In this document: positions 52,247-58,108 of the stretch, one piece after another
Layout: every line of letters begins with the position of its first letter
Position numbering within the stretch: the first letter of the stretch is position 1
NCBI GenBank assembly: GCA_964602775.1
Contig: CAZRRY010000001.1
Coordinates: 75,585 to 139,584, forward strand
Reading direction: 5' to 3'
DNA: 64,000 nt
Origin: an uncultured Candidatus Saccharibacteria bacterium
GTDB lineage: Bacteria > Patescibacteriota > Saccharimonadia > Saccharimonadales > Saccharimonadaceae
Made by a program: the position numbers and the translations under genes
Notes under the pieces: generated by a model
Told to the model about the DNA's origin: nothing
The model's database searches: none
Seen by the model: the letters and a program-made list of their open reading frames with translations, nothing else

Positions 52247-55200
52247 CTATGTTTCGCTCTTTTTGAGGGCAATCGACAGCGCTTTGCCATCGACATGTAC
52301 TTGCTCGGTATGTCCCTCACTGACATCCCCAAGTGACTTTGCAAGCGTCTCTGATTTAATGATCTTAGCGTGCTCGTCGATCGCAGTTTGCAAGTCTTTG
52401 TCGTCGGTCTTCAACTGCAGTTCGATCCGATCATCGACATTGAGCCCAGCTTGCTTGCGGGCAGCCTGCACGTGACGGATCACCTCGCGCATGAAACCTT
52501 CGCGTTGCAGCTTAGGAGTAATTGTGGTATCAAGTTGAACTTCAAGATTTTGTTGCTTATCTTGTGGACCACGCACAGTAGCGCGTAATTCTTTCACGTT
52601 TAGCTCTTCTGTGATAATCGGTTCATAGAACCTTTCTTTTGCGTCGACTTTGCGTTCTGCTTCAAGCACTGAAAGCAATGCCGGCACCGGATTGTAGAGA
52701 GTTGCTTTTTGGAGTGGTTGTCGTACTTTTATGCCCTCTTTCGCACGAAGGCTCAACCCGTCATTTACTACTTTCCTTACCCCTTCCATGCGAGCAACAA
52801 CAAGCTCATCAATATTGCCAGCCGGCAGCCAGTCCTTGAGGTGGATTGATTCTTTGTCGCCAGTCAAATTGTGATACAACTCTTCAGCCAAAAACGGCGT
52901 AAACGGTGCGAGCACATAGGCCAGCCGCACCAGCACGTAGTGGAGCGTGCGATAGGCGTCGTTTTTGTCAGCGTCGTCTTCGGAGCCTTCGGCACCTTTT
53001 GATGATCTCCAGAACCGTCGGCGTGAGCGCCGCACGTACCAGTTGCTGGCGTCGTCGAGAAACGGCAAGATCGGGCTCATCGCGTCTGGCAGATTGTAGC
53101 CGTCCATATGCTTTTCAACTTCCGCGACAAGTTGGTGCAAGCGACTAATGATCCAGATATCGAGCGGGTTGCTGCAATCTGCCAAAGGGTCAGCAAGCTG
53201 TCCGTCGTACTCCCAGCCATCAACTTCGGCATACATCGTAAAGAAATCGTACATATTCCAGATCATGCTCAGTTTGCGCGCTACGTCACCAACCTCTTTG
53301 TCTTGGAGCGAGAAGTCTTCGCCGCTCAGCAGTGGACTCGAGAGCAGCAAGTAGCGCAAACTATCGGCACTAAATTTGTCCATGAGTTCATTGGGGTCGG
53401 TGTAGTTACCATAGCTTTTACTCATTTTGCGACCATCATTGCCTGCGACGTTACCGGTCACGATGACGTTTTTAAACGCATGCGTGCCAAACAGCGCCAC
53501 GTTGACAGCATGCACATAGTAAAACCACGCACGCACCTGTCCGACGTACTCGACGATAAAATCACCCGGGAAATTCGACTCAAATTTAGCTTTGTTTTCA
53601 AACGGATAGTGAAACTGTGCGAACGGCATAGAACCGCTCTCAAACCAACAGTCGATGACTTTGTCGATGCGCGTATACATTTCGCCGTCGATTGCAAACG
53701 TGACGTCGTCGACCCACGGTCGGTGGTAATCCTCAAGTTCGACTCCTGAGAGTTCTTTGAGCTCAGCGTAACTACCGATGACTTTTATCTTGCCCGACTC
53801 GCTTTTCCAGACCGGCATGGCTGTGGCCCAAAATCGGTCACGGCTGAGGTTCCAGTCTGGTGCTGATTCAATCGTCTTGGCGAATCGACCATTTTTGACA
53901 TGTGGTGGAAACCAGTTGATCGGGCCGTTTTCTTCGAGCATCTGCTCGCGCTGGCCAGCGACATCCATAAACCAGCTCGGGTGGGCGCGGTACATCAGCT
54001 TGGTGCCACAGCGGTGACAATGCGGGTAACTGTGGCGAATATAGTCGATTTTCCAGACAATCCCCCGCTCTTTGAGGTCTTTGGCAATCTGTTTATTGGT
54101 TTCCCAAACATTCTGCCCCGTCCAATCACCTTCGGTGAAATTACCATTCTCGTCGATGGTATGCACAACAGGTATGCCTTTTTGCTGCGCTAGCACAAAG
54201 TCTTCCTCACCGTACGCTGGTGCCAGGTGCACGATGCCCGTACCGTCCTCGGCACTCACATAGTCTGCCGCCCATACTTTATGCGCACCCTCACCACGGT
54301 AGCCAAAGAGAGGTTCATATCTTAGGTCTACGAGCTCTGCACCCTTCATCTCCCGCAGAATTTCATACTGGAGGGGCTTATGTTTTTCGTCTTGCAACAC
54401 CTTCTCTACTAATTCTTTAGCAAGAATAAACTGATCGCTACCAACCTTCACCTCAACATAATCGAGCTTCGCGTTAACTGCCAGAGCAGTATTAGCAGGT
54501 AATGTCCACGGCGTTGTCGTCCACGCCAGTAAATACACCGGCTTAGCATCTGGCTTATTGACAAAATTCATTGGGAGGAAACCTATTTCTTTCAGAAGAC
54601 GTGCCGTCGTCGGCGAAAACTCCTCAAGTAAAAGCTCCTCTTTTGTATACCAACGAGCATGCTCGAGATCATCCTCGCAGAAAATTTTTACATCGACTGC
54701 TTTTTGAGCAAGCTGTATGGAATAATTATGAAACTCCATCTCTACAAATACTTCCTCACCTGTCTCGTGCAACGTCTTCTCGCTTGAACCATTCATCACA
54801 AGGTTGATCTTTTGCACTTTAGCAGATGTAATATCAATACCAACCTCTTCAAGCACTTCTTTGTGAAGAGCGCTTTCTTTCGTCTCACCTTCCTCAACAC
54901 CACCAGCAGGGGCTACTAAACATCCCTCAAAAACCCCACCTTTGCAATTATTACCAAGTAAGATCTTACCATCATCAGAGATGATATTACCGCCAACTAT
55001 TGTGCGCTTGATCACTCGTAATTTTTTACTATTCGGCTGCTTTTCTTCGATCTTAAACTTCACAAACACACTCGGATCAGTTACATCCTGATACGCCCCA
55101 GCGTCCATTGTCACCTCGGCTTTACTTAGTGGTGTGGCATCGAGCGTACAATACATCAGGACTTTTTCACCCTCGTAAATTTTGCCGGCATCATAGAGCG

Positions 55201-55693
55201 TCTTAAATGCCCACCAGACGCTTTCCATGTATTCTTTGTCCATAGTTTTGTAGGCATTGTCCATGTCTACCCAGCGGCCGATGCGTGCCACGACATCATT
55301 CCATTCACTACTCGTCTGCACCATATTGTTGCGGCACGCGATGATGTATTTTTCGATACCATAGTCGAGCACTTCTTCGCGGCTATTGATACCGAGTTTT
55401 TTCTCTGTAAATCGCTCTGCTGGCAGTCCGTGACAGTCCCAGCCCCATACGCGCTCAACGCGCTTGCCTTTCATCGTTTGATAGCGAGGAATTGCGTCCT
55501 TGACGATGCTGCTGAGCAAGGTTCCGTGGTGAGGGTTGCCAGAAATAAACGGCGGCCCGTCATAAAACACATATGAATTATCTTTCGGGCGGTTTTCGAC
55601 TGATTTTTCAAACGTCTTGTCGGCCTTCCACCGCTGCACCCAATCTTTTTCATACTCTAGCGCCCGCCGACGTGTACCAGATTTAAATTTCAT
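52247..55693 (-). CDS. ileS: Isoleucine--tRNA ligase type 2 with an inserted Nudix domain
   Basis: YDGPPF, GWDCHGLP, WTTTPWTLP, DQ/GQVRAWFY, KMSKS, type-2 C-terminus (REVIRHVQ..RK). Confidence 0.97.
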   Translation of the reverse strand: MKFKSGTRRRALEYEKDWVQRWKADKTFEKSVENRPKDNSYVFYDGPPFISGNPHHGTLLSSIVKDAIPRYQTMKGKRVERVWGWDCHGLPAERFTEKKLGINSREEVLDYGIEKYIIACRNNMVQTSSEWNDVVARIGRWVDMDNAYKTMDKEYMESVWWAFKTLYDAGKIYEGEKVLMYCTLDATPLSKAEVTMDAGAYQDVTDPSVFVKFKIEEKQPNSKKLRVIKRTIVGGNIISDDGKILLGNNCKGGVFEGCLVAPAGGVEEGETKESALHKEVLEEVGIDITSAKVQKINLVMNGSSEKTLHETGEEVFVEMEFHNYSIQLAQKAVDVKIFCEDDLEHARWYTKEELLLEEFSPTTARLLKEIGFLPMNFVNKPDAKPVYLLAWTTTPWTLPANTALAVNAKLDYVEVKVGSDQFILAKELVEKVLQDEKHKPLQYEILREMKGAELVDLRYEPLFGYRGEGAHKVWAADYVSAEDGTGIVHLAPAYGEEDFVLAQQKGIPVVHTIDENGNFTEGDWTGQNVWETNKQIAKDLKERGIVWKIDYIRHSYPHCHRCGTKLMYRAHPSWFMDVAGQREQMLEENGPINWFPPHVKNGRFAKTIESAPDWNLSRDRFWATAMPVWKSESGKIKVIGSYAELKELSGVELEDYHRPWVDDVTFAIDGEMYTRIDKVIDCWFESGSMPFAQFHYPFENKAKFESNFPGDFIVEYVGQVRAWFYYVHAVNVALFGTHAFKNVIVTGNVAGNDGRKMSKSYGNYTDPNELMDKFSADSLRYLLLSSPLLSGEDFSLQDKEVGDVARKLSMIWNMYDFFTMYAEVDGWEYDGQLADPLADCSNPLDIWIISRLHQLVAEVEKHMDGYNLPDAMSPILPFLDDASNWYVRRSRRRFWRSSKGAEGSEDDADKNDAYRTLHYVLVRLAYVLAPFTPFLAEELYHNLTGDKESIHLKDWLPAGNIDELVVARMEGVRKVVNDGLSLRAKEGIKVRQPLQKATLYNPVPALLSVLEAERKVDAKERFYEPIITEELNVKELRATVRGPQDKQQNLEVQLDTTITPKLQREGFMREVIRHVQAARKQAGLNVDDRIELQLKTDDKDLQTAIDEHAKIIKSETLAKSLGDVSEGHTEQVHVDGKALSIALKKSET
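54540..55050 (-). other. In-frame Nudix hydrolase domain inside IleRS (about aa 215-385)
   Basis: GGVEEGETKESALHKEVLEEVGI fits the Nudix box with Arg replaced by Lys; visibly AT-richer than its flanks. Confidence 0.85.
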
Positions 55694-55743
55694 AGTTCCT
55701 CCTTGCTTGATTTTTCTTTAGAATAGCGATATAATGAAGGTAT

Positions 55744-55792
55744 AGAAAACCTAGCCAGTGTTGGATTACACAGACTAGGTTTTCTCTTTTTT
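55744..55792. terminator. Bidirectional terminator-like hairpin between the nuclease gene and ileS
   Basis: AGAAAACCTAG...CTAGGTTTTCT plus a T-tract. Confidence 0.7.
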
Positions 55793-55805
55793 ATACGTGT
55801 TTTCA

Positions 55806-56186
55806 TCATTTTATCCGAACCACCTTCCCTGTTTTTTCGATCAACAGTACTTGTTTTGTGCTCTTCGCTAAGCTTGCTTGATAAGCCACTTCTCGACGCA
55901 CACGAGCAATATGAATCTTAATTCGACGCGCATCGATAATGACGTTGTGCGACTGCTTCGCGGCTCGCTGGAACTGCCTCTGAATCGTGTATTTACTTCC
56001 GCCAACAGGACTTTTGATCTCCCATTTTTCACCACTAACTTCAATATCAGGCGTACTCATAGAAGCGACTGGCAAAAATTGAATATCGGCCTGAAAAAAC
56101 TCTAGCAACAGACTGGCGGCACTCAGCTCAAATCGCGCAGGCACAGGATGGACGGCTTGCGGTATGATAACTCGGTATTTTTTCAT
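55806..56186 (-). CDS. Stand-alone CdiA-C-like PD-(D/E)xK endonuclease
   Basis: TPDIEVSGEKWEIKSP, AAKQSHNVIIDARR resembles the CdiA_C tRNase family (recalled). Confidence 0.65.
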   Translation of the reverse strand: MKKYRVIIPQAVHPVPARFELSAASLLLEFFQADIQFLPVASMSTPDIEVSGEKWEIKSPVGGSKYTIQRQFQRAAKQSHNVIIDARRIKIHIARVRREVAYQASLAKSTKQVLLIEKTGKVVRIK

Positions 56187-56241
56187 AGCAGTCCCACAAC
56201 CTCACGCTCCGACGCAAGGCAGCTTAAATATAACTTACATT

Positions 56242-56751
56242 TCATAATATCTCCACAATCTTTTGTAATGTTTCCTCTGGCGATAAATGCGTCGAGTCAA
56301 TAACGTGTGCGAGAGAAGTTTGCATTAAGAGGCTAGTGTAATGGTATGTTATGCGATTGATTTCCCATTCATTTAATTCGGGTCTGCTCGCCGAACCAGC
56401 TAAGACCTTTTCCATGCTCGGCTTCAGCAAAAACCACTTCGCTTCAAACGTGACGCCCTCGAGCGCCTTCGTAATTTGCTCGCGCACTGTATCAGTAAAT
56501 GGATAGTCTACTATCACGTCCAGCCCATCTTTGAGAGGATGTTCAATGAACTCAATGATACGCTCGTGAACCTCTGGTAACATGTCGTCCATGGTGGCGT
56601 CTTTTGGATAATTCTTGCTAACCCACGACGAGATCAAATCACCATCGACATACATGGCATTTGGCATTTGAGCAGCAAGCATCCTAGAAATTGTCGTTTT
56701 GCCCGAGTGTACTGAGCCACTGATAGAAATCAGCCTTGGCATAAAACTCAT
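56242..56751 (-). CDS. P-loop (AAA_33-like) small-molecule kinase
   Basis: ISGSVHSGKTT, YVDGD, VIVDY, IDST. Confidence 0.8.
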   Translation of the reverse strand: MSFMPRLISISGSVHSGKTTISRMLAAQMPNAMYVDGDLISSWVSKNYPKDATMDDMLPEVHERIIEFIEHPLKDGLDVIVDYPFTDTVREQITKALEGVTFEAKWFLLKPSMEKVLAGSASRPELNEWEINRITYHYTSLLMQTSLAHVIDSTHLSPEETLQKIVEIL

Positions 56752-57305
56752 TGCTTATCTCCTTTTCGCACCATCGTTATCTCCGGAAGCATGTTATCAT
56801 GCAGCCTTTCAGAGCCCTTTACAGGCTCAAAGCCCCATTTTTTGTAGAACGCTATCGCCCGTTCATTATACGCAACCACTTCTAGTTGTATTGGCTTCGT
56901 TGGGTCAAAAAAATCGATCACTTTCTGCATCAGCTGACCACCAACTACTTTGCCGTGCCATACTTTGTCGACATACAGTGAGCCAACATGCTGCACGCCA
57001 TCTTCGTCTGCAAATGGTGACGTGACGCCTATGACATGTCCTTCGCTGTCTTTTGCCACCCAAGCTGCAAAACGAGGGTCTTCGAGAGTAGCCAACCGTG
57101 CATCAACTCGCTCGGGCTCATTGAAACGTTTTGTGCGTTCATGCACCCATTCATGCGACACGCCGGCTGCTAGGTTCGGGTAGGTATCGAGCCACGATTG
57201 TGCACGCATCTCATTTGCCGCCACAAGATCATCTCGGGACAGAAGTCGCTCTATGACAAACTGCCTTTCAGTATACTGCTCGCTGTTTGATTGCTGCTCG
57301 CTCAT
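56748..57305 (-). CDS. GNAT family N-acetyltransferase
   Basis: LYVDKVWHGKVVGGQLM motif A, VVAYNERAIAFYKKWGF. Confidence 0.88.
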   Translation of the reverse strand: MSEQQSNSEQYTERQFVIERLLSRDDLVAANEMRAQSWLDTYPNLAAGVSHEWVHERTKRFNEPERVDARLATLEDPRFAAWVAKDSEGHVIGVTSPFADEDGVQHVGSLYVDKVWHGKVVGGQLMQKVIDFFDPTKPIQLEVVAYNERAIAFYKKWGFEPVKGSERLHDNMLPEITMVRKGDKQ

Positions 57306-57345
57306 AGAATCCCTTTAGATACATTAAAAAACACCTATTTTGACT

Positions 57346-57515
57346 ACGAGAATCCGATCGCTCGGACGGTACCATCTCGTTTCCAAAAGAAGTGTTCTTT
57401 TAGCGCTTAATCTGCTCACTTTGTCGCAGTGAATCACGGCGGGTTCTAGTTTCTTTCATAGATTTCTTCCCGCTGACGTATATCTCTATTTGCAGCTGAT
57501 AACCACTCAAACGTC
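57346..57515 (-). ncRNA. T-box riboswitch, Ile (AUC) specifier, ultrashort stem I type
   Basis: Short stem I with ATCA in the loop (57498-57500); stem II GCGGGAAGAA...TAGAACCCGC; antiterminator ACGAGA-TGGTACC-GTCCGA-gcga-TCGGA-TTCTCGT; TGC-TATAAT promoter at 57524-57529. Confidence 0.85.
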
Positions 57516-57531
57516 TTGACGTTATTATAGC

Positions 57532-57563
57532 AAAAAGGCAGAGTTTTTCCACCCCTGCCTTTT
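57532..57563 (-). terminator. Terminator after the DoxX gene
   Basis: AAAAGGCAG...CTGCCTTTTT. Confidence 0.75.
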
Positions 57564-57593
57564 CTTAGAGCTCAGAACTTAGATCTTAGAACT
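57563..57593. repeat. Solo heptamer array of the same family as the four-helix flanks
   Basis: Minus strand: AGTTCTA AGATCTA AGTTCTG AGCTCTA AGA. Confidence 0.75.
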
Positions 57594-57601
57594 TTCCGGA
57601 A

Positions 57602-58108
57602 CTACCAGATCCAAGGATTTTTCTTGGCGTAGCTATTCTGCATCCACTGGTTGAACAGGCTCCATTTGCGTGGCGCAAACGCAGCTACCCACAAGAGGAC
57701 GCTGTATACCATATGCTCGTCAACGATTGGATTGTTTTTGAGAGGCATTTCTGCAGCCCACATCATCATGAGTAATGCCGTACCAGTCGCCGCTGCGACA
57801 CGTAGACCGATGCCAAACACGAGTGCAAGCCCAATCCCAAGGAGACCAAGCATGAACAGCCAGTCAACCAAGACATTGCCTGCAAGCCCGTGGAAGAAAT
57901 CTGCCATCGGACTCTGTGGATTGACCCCCATTTTGAGGAATCCAGTTGTTGGCGAGACGCCATCAAGCCACGCTTTGCCATGTGGGGTTGCAAACCCTAG
58001 CCCCATTGTTTTGTCGAGGAATGCCCATACGAAGACAAATCCCACCATAATTCGTGCAACCGCGAGTGCGTACCATGCTTTCTCGTAGTTTACTGTTTTT
58101 TTGACCAT
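57602..58108 (-). CDS. DoxX/DoxD family membrane protein
   Basis: ARIMVGFVFVWAFLDK, VDWLF.LG..GIG, NPIVDEH. Confidence 0.85.
   Translation of the reverse strand: MVKKTVNYEKAWYALAVARIMVGFVFVWAFLDKTMGLGFATPHGKAWLDGVSPTTGFLKMGVNPQSPMADFFHGLAGNVLVDWLFMLGLLGIGLALVFGIGLRVAAATGTALLMMMWAAEMPLKNNPIVDEHMVYSVLLWVAAFAPRKWSLFNQWMQNSYAKKNPWIW

Follow-up and report, generated by a model that had tools for sequence, protein, structure and literature searches.

The stretch of DNA considered here, referred to below as the window (64,000 nucleotides of contig CAZRRY010000001.1, from an uncultured Candidatus Saccharibacteria bacterium), raises a question about regulatory wiring: what is controlled, and by which mechanism, by an isoleucine (Ile) T-box leader that is separated from ileS, the gene for isoleucyl-tRNA synthetase (IleRS), by genes for a GNAT acetyltransferase, a P-loop kinase-like protein and a CdiA-like nuclease? 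In the answer that we consider likely, the leader is the normal ileS leader of Saccharibacteria, which senses tRNA-Ile with an ultrashort Stem I and, by transcription attenuation, drives a modular GNAT-kinase-nuclease-ileS operon. Judging from sequence comparison, this would be a clade-wide, unannotated T-box design whose layout recurs across the Saccharibacteria. In the direction of transcription, which for the leader and all four genes is that of the minus strand, the order is a DoxX-like gene, a promoter, the leader of about 210 nt, GNAT, kinase, nuclease, a hairpin and ileS, with short gaps between the operon genes apart from the 4-nt overlap of GNAT and kinase (coordinates, given throughout as window positions, are collected in Table 1). 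The same series of a GNAT, a coupled kinase, a CdiA-like nuclease, a hairpin and ileS had been proposed in an initial annotation made from the sequence alone, and it is borne out by the open reading frames (ORFs), by Pfam and NCBIfam matches and by an independent contig from a wastewater metagenome that spans 55602-57640 with 0 differences; because of this identity, the gene order is no assembly artefact.

The evidence for the leader comes in the first place from its conservation. Relatives were represented by 80 loci fetched with the N-terminus of the window IleRS, essentially all of them from Saccharibacteria metagenome-assembled genomes (MAGs); L-numbers such as L001 or L081 are the labels of the relatives' loci and contigs compared. 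A profile built from an alignment of 32 leaders finds exactly one same-strand copy upstream of ileS in 75 of the 80 loci and a single copy in the window (57521-57310); a second alignment comprises 57 leaders, and the bulge was counted on 94. The motif GAUGGUACCG lies 62-104 nt ahead of the ileS start in about 30 of the 80 loci, the AUC specifier is invariant in the 32 aligned leaders, and the T-box bulge reads UGGU in 91 of the 94. Rare bulge variants are UGGA (L002 6931), UGGC (L043 6927), UGGUAUC (L010 6933) and UGGUAAC (the L017 leader), the first two of which would mismatch the A73 discriminator base. Transcription of the leader probably starts near 57517, from a promoter that overlaps the terminator hairpin of the DoxX-like gene upstream and is found at the equivalent position in the relatives' leaders. 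The nearest relative of the window's ileS region, L001 (JBLMYZ010000017.1, 94% identity), was deposited as an Acidobacteriota MAG; since it has a leader and an IleRS of the typical Saccharibacteria kind, this contig is probably mis-binned.

When taken part by part, the leader displays the core elements of a T-box. The AUC specifier (57498-57500, followed by A; AUC-A 57497-57500) is located in the terminal loop of Stem I, the S-turn elements AAGAA and AGUAGA of Stem II are near-invariant in the 32-leader alignment, and helix IIB of the pseudoknot forms 5 bp in the window but is only 59% paired on a MAFFT alignment with length variation. The RRRxG-Stem III-AA motif, as defined in the review PMC7583486, is present as AAGCG, Stem III and GGAA, and positions A119, A120, G121, G123 and C124 of its purine part are invariant or nearly so; the same review reports that the tRNA 3' end cannot be bound without Stem III. 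In the discriminator, helices A1 and A2 carry many compensatory changes, A2 is closed by a G-U pair (G57367-U57352), and the bulge UGGUACC (57368-57374) includes UGGU at 57371-57374. The claim of the initial annotation that an Ile T-box with all core parts and an AUC specifier lies here is therefore upheld by covariation and by the leader profile.

A long Stem I, with its K-turn, specifier internal loop and distal T-loop platform, is absent, its place being taken by a 4-bp hairpin with a 7-nt loop. A short Stem I with the specifier in its terminal loop is the feature of the “ultrashort” class, which has been described to date for translational ileS T-boxes of Actinobacteria (bioRxiv 10.1101/2023.02.28.530422), and the window leader has this short Stem I, the specifier in the terminal loop, Stem II and an ileS target. 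As summarised in that preprint and in PMC7583486, the leaders of Mycobacterium and Nocardia (Sherwood et al. 2015) share with it the short hairpin with AUC in its terminal loop and the absence of a distal platform for the tRNA elbow, along with the Stem II S-turn, the IIA/B pseudoknot, Stem III, the UGGN discriminator, ileS as target and tRNA-Ile as the tRNA that is read. The resemblance to actinobacterial ileS T-boxes seen by the initial annotation was well founded as regards the short Stem I kind. The leaders differ in their hosts, the window leader belonging to the phylum Saccharibacteria of the candidate phyla radiation (CPR), and in the several genes between leader and ileS; TBDB looked for the ultrashort class only in Actinobacteria. 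A subclass of leaders without Stem III was also observed upstream of ileS (L036, L042, L057, L062, L065, L067 and L072), in which the discriminator is framed by direct pairing of the purine string AAGUCCC with GGGGCUU plus a U-run; for L036, an alternative partner of the GGGGCUU 3' strand could be the 3' strand of A1, in the style of a canonical terminator.

How the leader acts is indicated by a second structure. Its minimum-free-energy fold is a long hairpin (57332-57397) followed by U6, in which the 3' half and loop of Stem III (57383-57397) pair with 57330-57343; this basal helix continues A1 downwards and has the whole discriminator inside it, with A1 and A2 remaining intact. Compensatory changes are seen at 12 of its 13 base pairs, 92% of cells are paired across the 57 leaders, and pairing drops to at most 57% when, as a control, the partner strand is slid by 1-3 columns. 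The U-run is kept across leaders (T92-T94 conserved). A stable hairpin, an immediate U-tract and a position ahead of the regulated gene are what is expected of an intrinsic terminator, and the initial annotation was wrong in seeing no good terminator after the antiterminator; a simple terminator scanner misses this one because of its long loop. Stem III and the basal helix use the same 3' strand and are mutually exclusive, and both are supported; in the window, the nested terminator (OFF) is predicted at -23.2 kcal/mol and the combination of Stem III, A1 and A2 (ON) at -16.4 kcal/mol. A Stem III stabilised by tRNA would exclude the base of the terminator, which would make a workable switch. 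In all leaders the covarying helix and U-run lie 10-25 nt ahead of the Shine-Dalgarno (SD) sequence. In Actinobacteria, such leaders regulate translation by means of an SD sequestrator; the window leader has a U-tailed terminator, and the SD is part of no conserved helix in the leader alignments. Attenuation of transcription is thus the most likely mode of action suggested by these sequences.

Compared with canonical Firmicutes T-boxes (RF00230; for instance B. subtilis tyrS and glyQS), the window leader shares the decision at a U-run terminator, the T-box sequence, the bulge and the RRRxG-Stem III-AA motif. It differs in its ultrashort Stem I, in its Rfam score (24.6 bits against a gathering score of 93) and in its terminator: in canonical terminators the 5' strand is made up of the 3' strands of A1 and A2, which destroys the antiterminator (PMC7583486), whereas in the window this strand is supplied by the 3' half of Stem III, and A1 and A2 are spared.

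In the mechanism proposed, once transcription has started, the AUC loop and the Stem II S-turn would capture the anticodon of tRNA-Ile and the UGGU bulge would pair with the 3' end of the uncharged tRNA. Without uncharged tRNA, the strand 57330-57343 would invade Stem III and lengthen A1 into the U6-tailed hairpin, and transcription would stop before the GNAT gene; when uncharged tRNA is present, Stem III and the discriminator, compactly folded, would retain the 5' strand of the terminator helix and the polymerase would continue. A single transcript would then carry GNAT, kinase, CdiA-CT-like nuclease and ileS, so that all four genes would respond to the charging of tRNA-Ile. Sequence, covariation, synteny and folds are what the analysis shows directly, and tRNA binding, termination, read-through and co-transcription are the steps that we infer here; control of the GNAT and the kinase by the T-box, as the initial annotation had suggested, is supported by the single T-box of the window, the 4-nt gene overlap and the distance from leader to GNAT start.

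The second part of the question concerns the genes between leader and ileS. The leader adjoins ileS directly in 49 of the 75 loci, including L001 (94% identity of the IleRS N-terminus) and L002, and 1-5 ORFs intervene in 26 (about 35% of species). These ORFs form recurring families: GNAT, cupin, CYTH, CAP, SGNH esterase, small acidic proteins, His-phosphatase, Ser-hydrolase and NUDIX. Over all contigs compared, this slot holds 0-7 genes drawn from a common pool in colinear order, with the GNAT first whenever present, followed by cupin, CYTH, His-phosphatase, NUDIX, esterases and kinase, and with the nuclease last or next to last, usually directly before ileS (Table 1). Identities to the window are mosaic: in L086 the nuclease is 87% and the IleRS 70% identical, and in L090 the IleRS is 94% and the nuclease 60% identical. 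The colinear order speaks for differential loss and the mosaic identities for recombination, and the whole would fit a modular operon shaped by loss and recombination between conserved flanks.

Within this slot, the GNAT is a resident. It has 197 homologues among Saccharibacteria, its family shows 50-73% identity as first gene of the ileS operon across the group, and a GNAT comes first after the T-box in L016, L017, L018, L020, L035, L041, L051, L068, L081-85, L090 and L093 (identity 48% in L016 and 46% in L020; a HAD-GNAT fusion in L041). The contigs with the closest GNATs (L081 and L082, 73% identity, and genomes like Ca. Saccharimonas aalborgensis) read VKOR, leader, GNAT, ileS, with an overlap of GNAT stop and ileS start, which is why the GNAT is taken as the resident first gene of the operon and kinase and nuclease as the extra unit of the window; throughout L081-85 the GNAT lies directly before ileS. 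The window GNAT has its ATG 71 nt past GAUGG, the spacing of the ileS start in relatives without slot genes. Compared with L081, the extra segment of the window (about 55694-56747) falls precisely where the GNAT stop meets the ileS start. This junction is duplicated: L081 5801-5823 matches both 56742-56764 and 55682-55704. The SD/ATGA junction after the GNAT stop occurs twice in the window, ahead of the kinase and ahead of ileS.

The kinase and nuclease families are small and confined to Saccharibacteria (26 and 32 matches), with no homologue of either in the 80 species loci. The nuclease stands directly before ileS in L086, L089, L090, L093 and L095, and the kinase also occupies the slot in L095 and L097. 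The intervening genes would accordingly represent one local version of a modular slot, not random cargo. For the initial annotation, random cargo in relatives had been the outcome that would speak against a functional link, and the finding falls in between: the cargo is variable, but it is recurrent and ordered. Its suggestion of a cassette inserted between T-box and ileS did not hold in the form of a random three-gene insert, the GNAT being a conserved first gene and kinase and nuclease recurring; after the L081-85 contexts, it was replaced by a resident GNAT with kinase and nuclease as extra genes.

Table 1. Features of the locus in window coordinates, followed by gene orders in the slot of selected relatives.
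Feature	Position	Strand	Basis or remark
DoxX-like gene with own terminator	57602-58108	-	upstream neighbour of leader
Leader promoter TGGAAA-16-TG-TATAAT	57524-57551	-	promoter scan, 10/12 matches, extended -10
Ile T-box leader	57310-57521	-	nhmmer E 3.6e-41 against relatives' profile; Rfam RF00230 24.6 bits, isolated leader
Ultrashort Stem I, 4-bp hairpin GUGG/CUGC, 7-nt loop UUAUCAG	57492-57506	-	100% paired, 3/4 pairs compensatory
Stem II with S-turn, GCGGG-AAGAA ... CUAGAA-CCCGC	57439-57473	-	base helix 93% paired, 5/5 pairs compensatory
Stem IIA/B pseudoknot, IIA CGU/GCG, IIB UCACU/AGUGA	57416-57438	-	IIA 93% paired
AAGCG purine string and Stem III, AAAAGAA-CAC-UUCUUUU	57385-57408	-	84-95% paired, compensatory changes
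Discriminator, A1 ACGAGA/UCUCGU, 7-nt bulge UGGUACC, A2	57346-57380	-	A1 100%, A2 96% paired
Intrinsic terminator	57326-57400	-	basal helix 57383-57397 / 57330-57343, then U6 57326-57331
GNAT acetyltransferase, first gene of operon	56748-57305	-	Pfam
P-loop AAA_33 kinase-like protein	56242-56751	-	Pfam; ATGA overlap with GNAT stop, 4 nt
PF18451 CdiA_C-like PD-(D/E)XK nuclease, 126 aa	55806-56186	-	Pfam
Conserved hairpin after nuclease stop	55745-55784		6/13 pairs compensatory in 7 sequences
Antisense promoter-like site TTGATT-17-TATAAT	55707-55735	+	promoter scan; ends about 10 nt before hairpin stem
ileS, type 2 IleRS, 1148 aa, last gene of operon	52247-55693	-	Pfam, NCBIfam
NUDIX insert in IleRS, 168 aa	54539-55042	-	residues 218-385, after residue 217; Pfam domain 233-368
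Slot of L086			T-box, cupin, CYTH, nuclease, ileS
Slot of L089			T-box, HXXEE, 208 aa, CBU_0592, nuclease, ileS
Slot of L090			T-box, GNAT, Tag, cupin, MazG-like, 201 aa, His-phosphatase, nuclease, ileS
Slot of L093			T-box, GNAT, MazF-like, cupin, nuclease, ileS
Slot of L095			T-box, kinase, nuclease, ileS
Slot of L097			T-box, TfoX_N, kinase, ileS
Slot of L103			T-box, His-phosphatase, nuclease, Ser-hydrolase, ileS

Several points weigh against this picture of a transcriptional T-box serving the whole operon. Rfam at its gathering threshold reports no T-box match in the whole window, and on the isolated 271-nt leader the T-box model gives its 24.6 bits, well short of the 93 required, with E 8.7e-4 and an alignment that is good in the 3' half and has Stem I deleted; no T-box match was obtained at E<=10 on a 2.1-kb stretch, nor at the gathering threshold in 10 relatives' loci. 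The comparison with T-box models advised by the initial annotation thus gave a sub-threshold match for the isolated leader and none for the window. A search for the discriminator base of tRNA-Ile found no tRNA gene in the window or in 43 relatives' loci. Furthermore, transcriptional T-boxes normally have a long Stem I (PMC7583486) and a terminator that spares A1 and A2 departs from the canonical design, for which reasons the switch logic set out above is only what we infer. Downstream, the hairpin at 55745-55784, followed by UUUUCUAU on the minus strand, could end some of the transcripts ahead of ileS, nuclease and ileS could be driven independently by a promoter-like sequence at 56227-56255, and the only metatranscriptome run, with four 151-nt contigs, is too sparse to judge co-transcription. 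The identity of the leader is nevertheless settled by the comparative data, namely its presence in 75 of 80 loci and its covarying helices, despite the sub-threshold Rfam score: on these grounds, 57310-57521 is a real Ile T-box. Read-through into ileS is favoured, because the leader profile finds no second T-box in the window, including directly before ileS, the promoter scan finds no sense-strand promoter between nuclease and ileS, and half of the relatives' hairpins (those of a second type) have no sense-strand U-run.

The product of the last gene is itself unusual in carrying an insert, a NUDIX domain with an intact NUDIX box, GGVEEGETKESALHKEVLEEVGI, placed just before the editing-domain motif LLAWTTTPWT, delimited by blastn break points and absent in 74 of 77 scorable relatives. 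Large inserts at the same site occur in L020 (148 aa, NUDIX-like by eye), L058 and L078; L074 has an insert of 339 aa, NUDIX plus Ser-hydrolase-like by eye, and L095 one with a Pfam match to Ser_hydrolase. The same families are met as slot genes, NUDIX in L078 and Ser_hydrolase in L018 and L103. NCBIfam model NF040702 (“ileS_w_GNAT”) describes a GNAT domain linked to IleRS and parallels both the GNAT-ileS pair and the NUDIX and Ser-hydrolase inserts; the window IleRS, with 282 bits against a cut-off of 1999, is no member, and the window GNAT does not match the model at E<=0.01.

What the slot genes do is a further matter, and the first alternative bears on it. According to this view, which we regard as unlikely, the operon is a starvation-triggered RNA-targeting module: uncharged tRNA-Ile would turn on a tRNase-like toxin (elsewhere a MazF-like RNase) along with modifying enzymes, growth would be slowed, IleRS would be at hand for recovery, and an antisense RNA would restrain the nuclease. 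The nuclease lends some weight to it. It matches PF18451 with 45.2 bits against a gathering score of 26.6, its AlphaFold2 model has a predicted local distance difference test (pLDDT) score of 93, and its only significant match in the PDB is 4g6v_A, the CdiA-CT tRNase of B. pseudomallei 1026b (Foldseek E 1e-5, TM score 0.65), whose full-length fold it shares; P46-D47 and E56-x-K58 are invariant, leaving the PD-(D/E)XK residues intact. The initial annotation's term “CdiA-like” is justified in the sense of structural homology with that tRNase. The two proteins differ in that the window nuclease, 16% identical to CdiA-CT(II), is a stand-alone cytoplasmic protein of 126 aa rather than the C-terminal part of a large secreted CdiA, and is encoded within an aminoacyl-tRNA synthetase operon with no CdiI-like gene adjacent. 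Among the contexts compared, it has no conserved protein-coding neighbour besides ileS.

Beside the hairpin that follows the nuclease stop, the ileS strand has an A-run, seen as a T-run (55785-55792) on the plus strand; the antisense promoter-like site, hairpin and T-run would together specify a transcript of about 50 nt that runs convergently to the nuclease gene. Similar antisense sites (TTGACA or TTGATT, a spacer of 17-18 nt, TAnnnT) were seen by eye 7 nt before the hairpin in L086, L089, L090, L093 and L103, and L103 retains the unit beside the nuclease even though the Ser-hydrolase gene comes next. From its sequence, the unit could be a regulator of the nuclease, or else a bidirectional terminator or insulator.

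That this convergent unit travels with the nuclease speaks for an RNA-targeting module, as does a PemK/MazF-like gene in the slot of L093 (8170-8655, Pfam 40.9 bits, between GNAT and cupin), for which no MazE-like partner is obvious among the called genes. A distant CdiA_C-like branch (L101 5001-5378, 44% identity), away from ileS and T-box, lies near a ParE-toxin pair and small ORFs, which also fits. On the other side, the best 150 of 1300 related clusters are likewise stand-alone proteins of about 125-135 aa (around 130 aa) with no sign of being toxins, there is no protein immunity gene, and most slot genes are ordinary hydrolases. Nor does the GNAT resemble AtaT. AtaT, TacT and ItaT are, like it, small acetyltransferases of GNAT fold (about 175-185 aa), and ItaT acts on Ile-tRNA-Ile; none of the three is found among phmmer matches to the PDB at E<=1 or among the Foldseek top 50 for the window GNAT, which differs from them as a conserved first gene of the ileS operon with no antitoxin gene, the leader lying upstream, the kinase downstream and no small ORF partner beside it. 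A GNAT toxin of this type, to which the initial annotation had drawn attention, was rejected on grounds of sequence, fold ranking and the lack of an antitoxin gene. Membership in an anti-phage defence system was rejected as well: PADLOC finds no system for GNAT, kinase and nuclease, its only hit being a P-loop-only match of 16.9 bits to VakA.

As regards the kinase, the nearest structure is the uncharacterised BH3686 (2bdt). Its ORF begins MSF+MPRL... and a homologue begins MPQL..., the native start probably being the second ATG, at 56742; the three extra codons (MSF) resemble the start of IleRS (MKF). A homologue with 52% identity stands outside the ileS operon in L099/L100 (5001-6076), followed by a different GNAT (Acetyltransf_3), a sequence context that hints at a functional pairing of kinase and GNAT independent of ileS.

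A second alternative for the slot, which we hold to be improbable, is that of an inhibitor-defence operon, whose enzymes (acetyltransferase, kinase, esterases, NUDIX, CYTH or phosphatases) would inactivate IleRS inhibitors or isoleucine antimetabolites from hosts or neighbours; the T-box would be a natural sensor for this purpose, since a blocked IleRS raises uncharged tRNA-Ile. In its favour, the GNAT (AlphaFold2 model, pLDDT 94) is nearest in fold to small-molecule and amino-acid-analogue acetyltransferases, the Foldseek matches being PaiA, SpeG, PA1377, PA4866, phosphinothricin and nourseothricin acetyltransferases and RimI. The GNATs MccE and RimL acetylate aminoacyl-adenylate mimics, and NUDIX and Ser-hydrolase are each met in two forms, as genes of the slot and as inserted domains within IleRS. 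The argument is drawn purely from gene context, however, and CAP, the Tag glycosylase, TfoX_N, the small acidic proteins and the nucleases are ill-fitting members of such an operon. Starvation-induced RNase and housekeeping programmes would fit the data, and so would the detoxification of IleRS inhibitors.

Equally doubtful is the view that kinase and nuclease form a mobile or recombined cassette which has uncoupled the leader from ileS, so that the hairpin would end the T-box transcript, ileS would be expressed alone and the T-box would regulate passengers only. Consistent with it are the absence of the kinase-nuclease pair from the closest relatives (L001, L002 and L081), the duplicated junction, the mosaic identities that point to recombination, the hairpin with A- and U-runs before ileS and the promoter-like site before the nuclease. 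Against it stand the lack of a sense promoter between hairpin and ileS in the scan, the missing sense-strand U-run in relatives of the second hairpin type and the recurrence of the nuclease-hairpin-ileS layout in at least five lineages, always downstream of the only T-box; an essential gene left promoterless is unlikely.

Finally, the translational T-box of the initial annotation, in which, without tRNA, CUCGUAG (57344-57350) would pair with CUAUGAG across the GNAT start codon and block initiation as in actinobacterial ileS leaders, is very improbable: the 7-bp pairing does form in the window (-7.8 kcal/mol, a value equalled by 5% of shuffles) and elsewhere an ultrashort Stem I has been described for translational T-boxes only, but the pairing is found in none of 8 other GNAT-first leaders, which led to the rejection of start-codon sequestration, the loop closed by it would measure about 37 nt and a far more stable helix would compete with it, and the covarying helix with its U-run ahead of an SD free of conserved structure is the signature of a terminator.

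The transcriptional T-box operon that we favour bears on the biology of the group in several ways. T-boxes are thought to split into a transcriptional class with a long Stem I and a translational, actinobacterial class with a short one; a leader in which an ultrashort Stem I goes together with a terminator wrapped around the discriminator and in competition with Stem III would represent a third design, one that would directly test the role of Stem III in switching. Literature searches returned no paper tying T-boxes to Saccharibacteria or Patescibacteria, and nothing for IleRS with Saccharibacteria or for a fusion of IleRS and Nudix; since the leader scores below the Rfam threshold and no T-box paper for the group was found, annotations of Saccharibacteria probably miss it. 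In the most far-reaching version, which we regard as a long shot, the locus would be a cis-wired starvation switch of this new design, terminator against Stem III, through which uncharged tRNA-Ile induces IleRS along with lineage-variable RNases (a CdiA-CT-like tRNase under a tiny antisense RNA, or a MazF-like one) and modifying enzymes (GNAT, kinase, NUDIX, MazG, CYTH), some of them built into IleRS. The ordered, recurrent slot and the matching NUDIX and Ser-hydrolase inserts of IleRS suggest that there are enzymes acting together with IleRS or controlled by tRNA-Ile. Saccharibacteria are unable to make their own amino acids, and the slot genes are concrete candidates for their response to starvation or to inhibitors.

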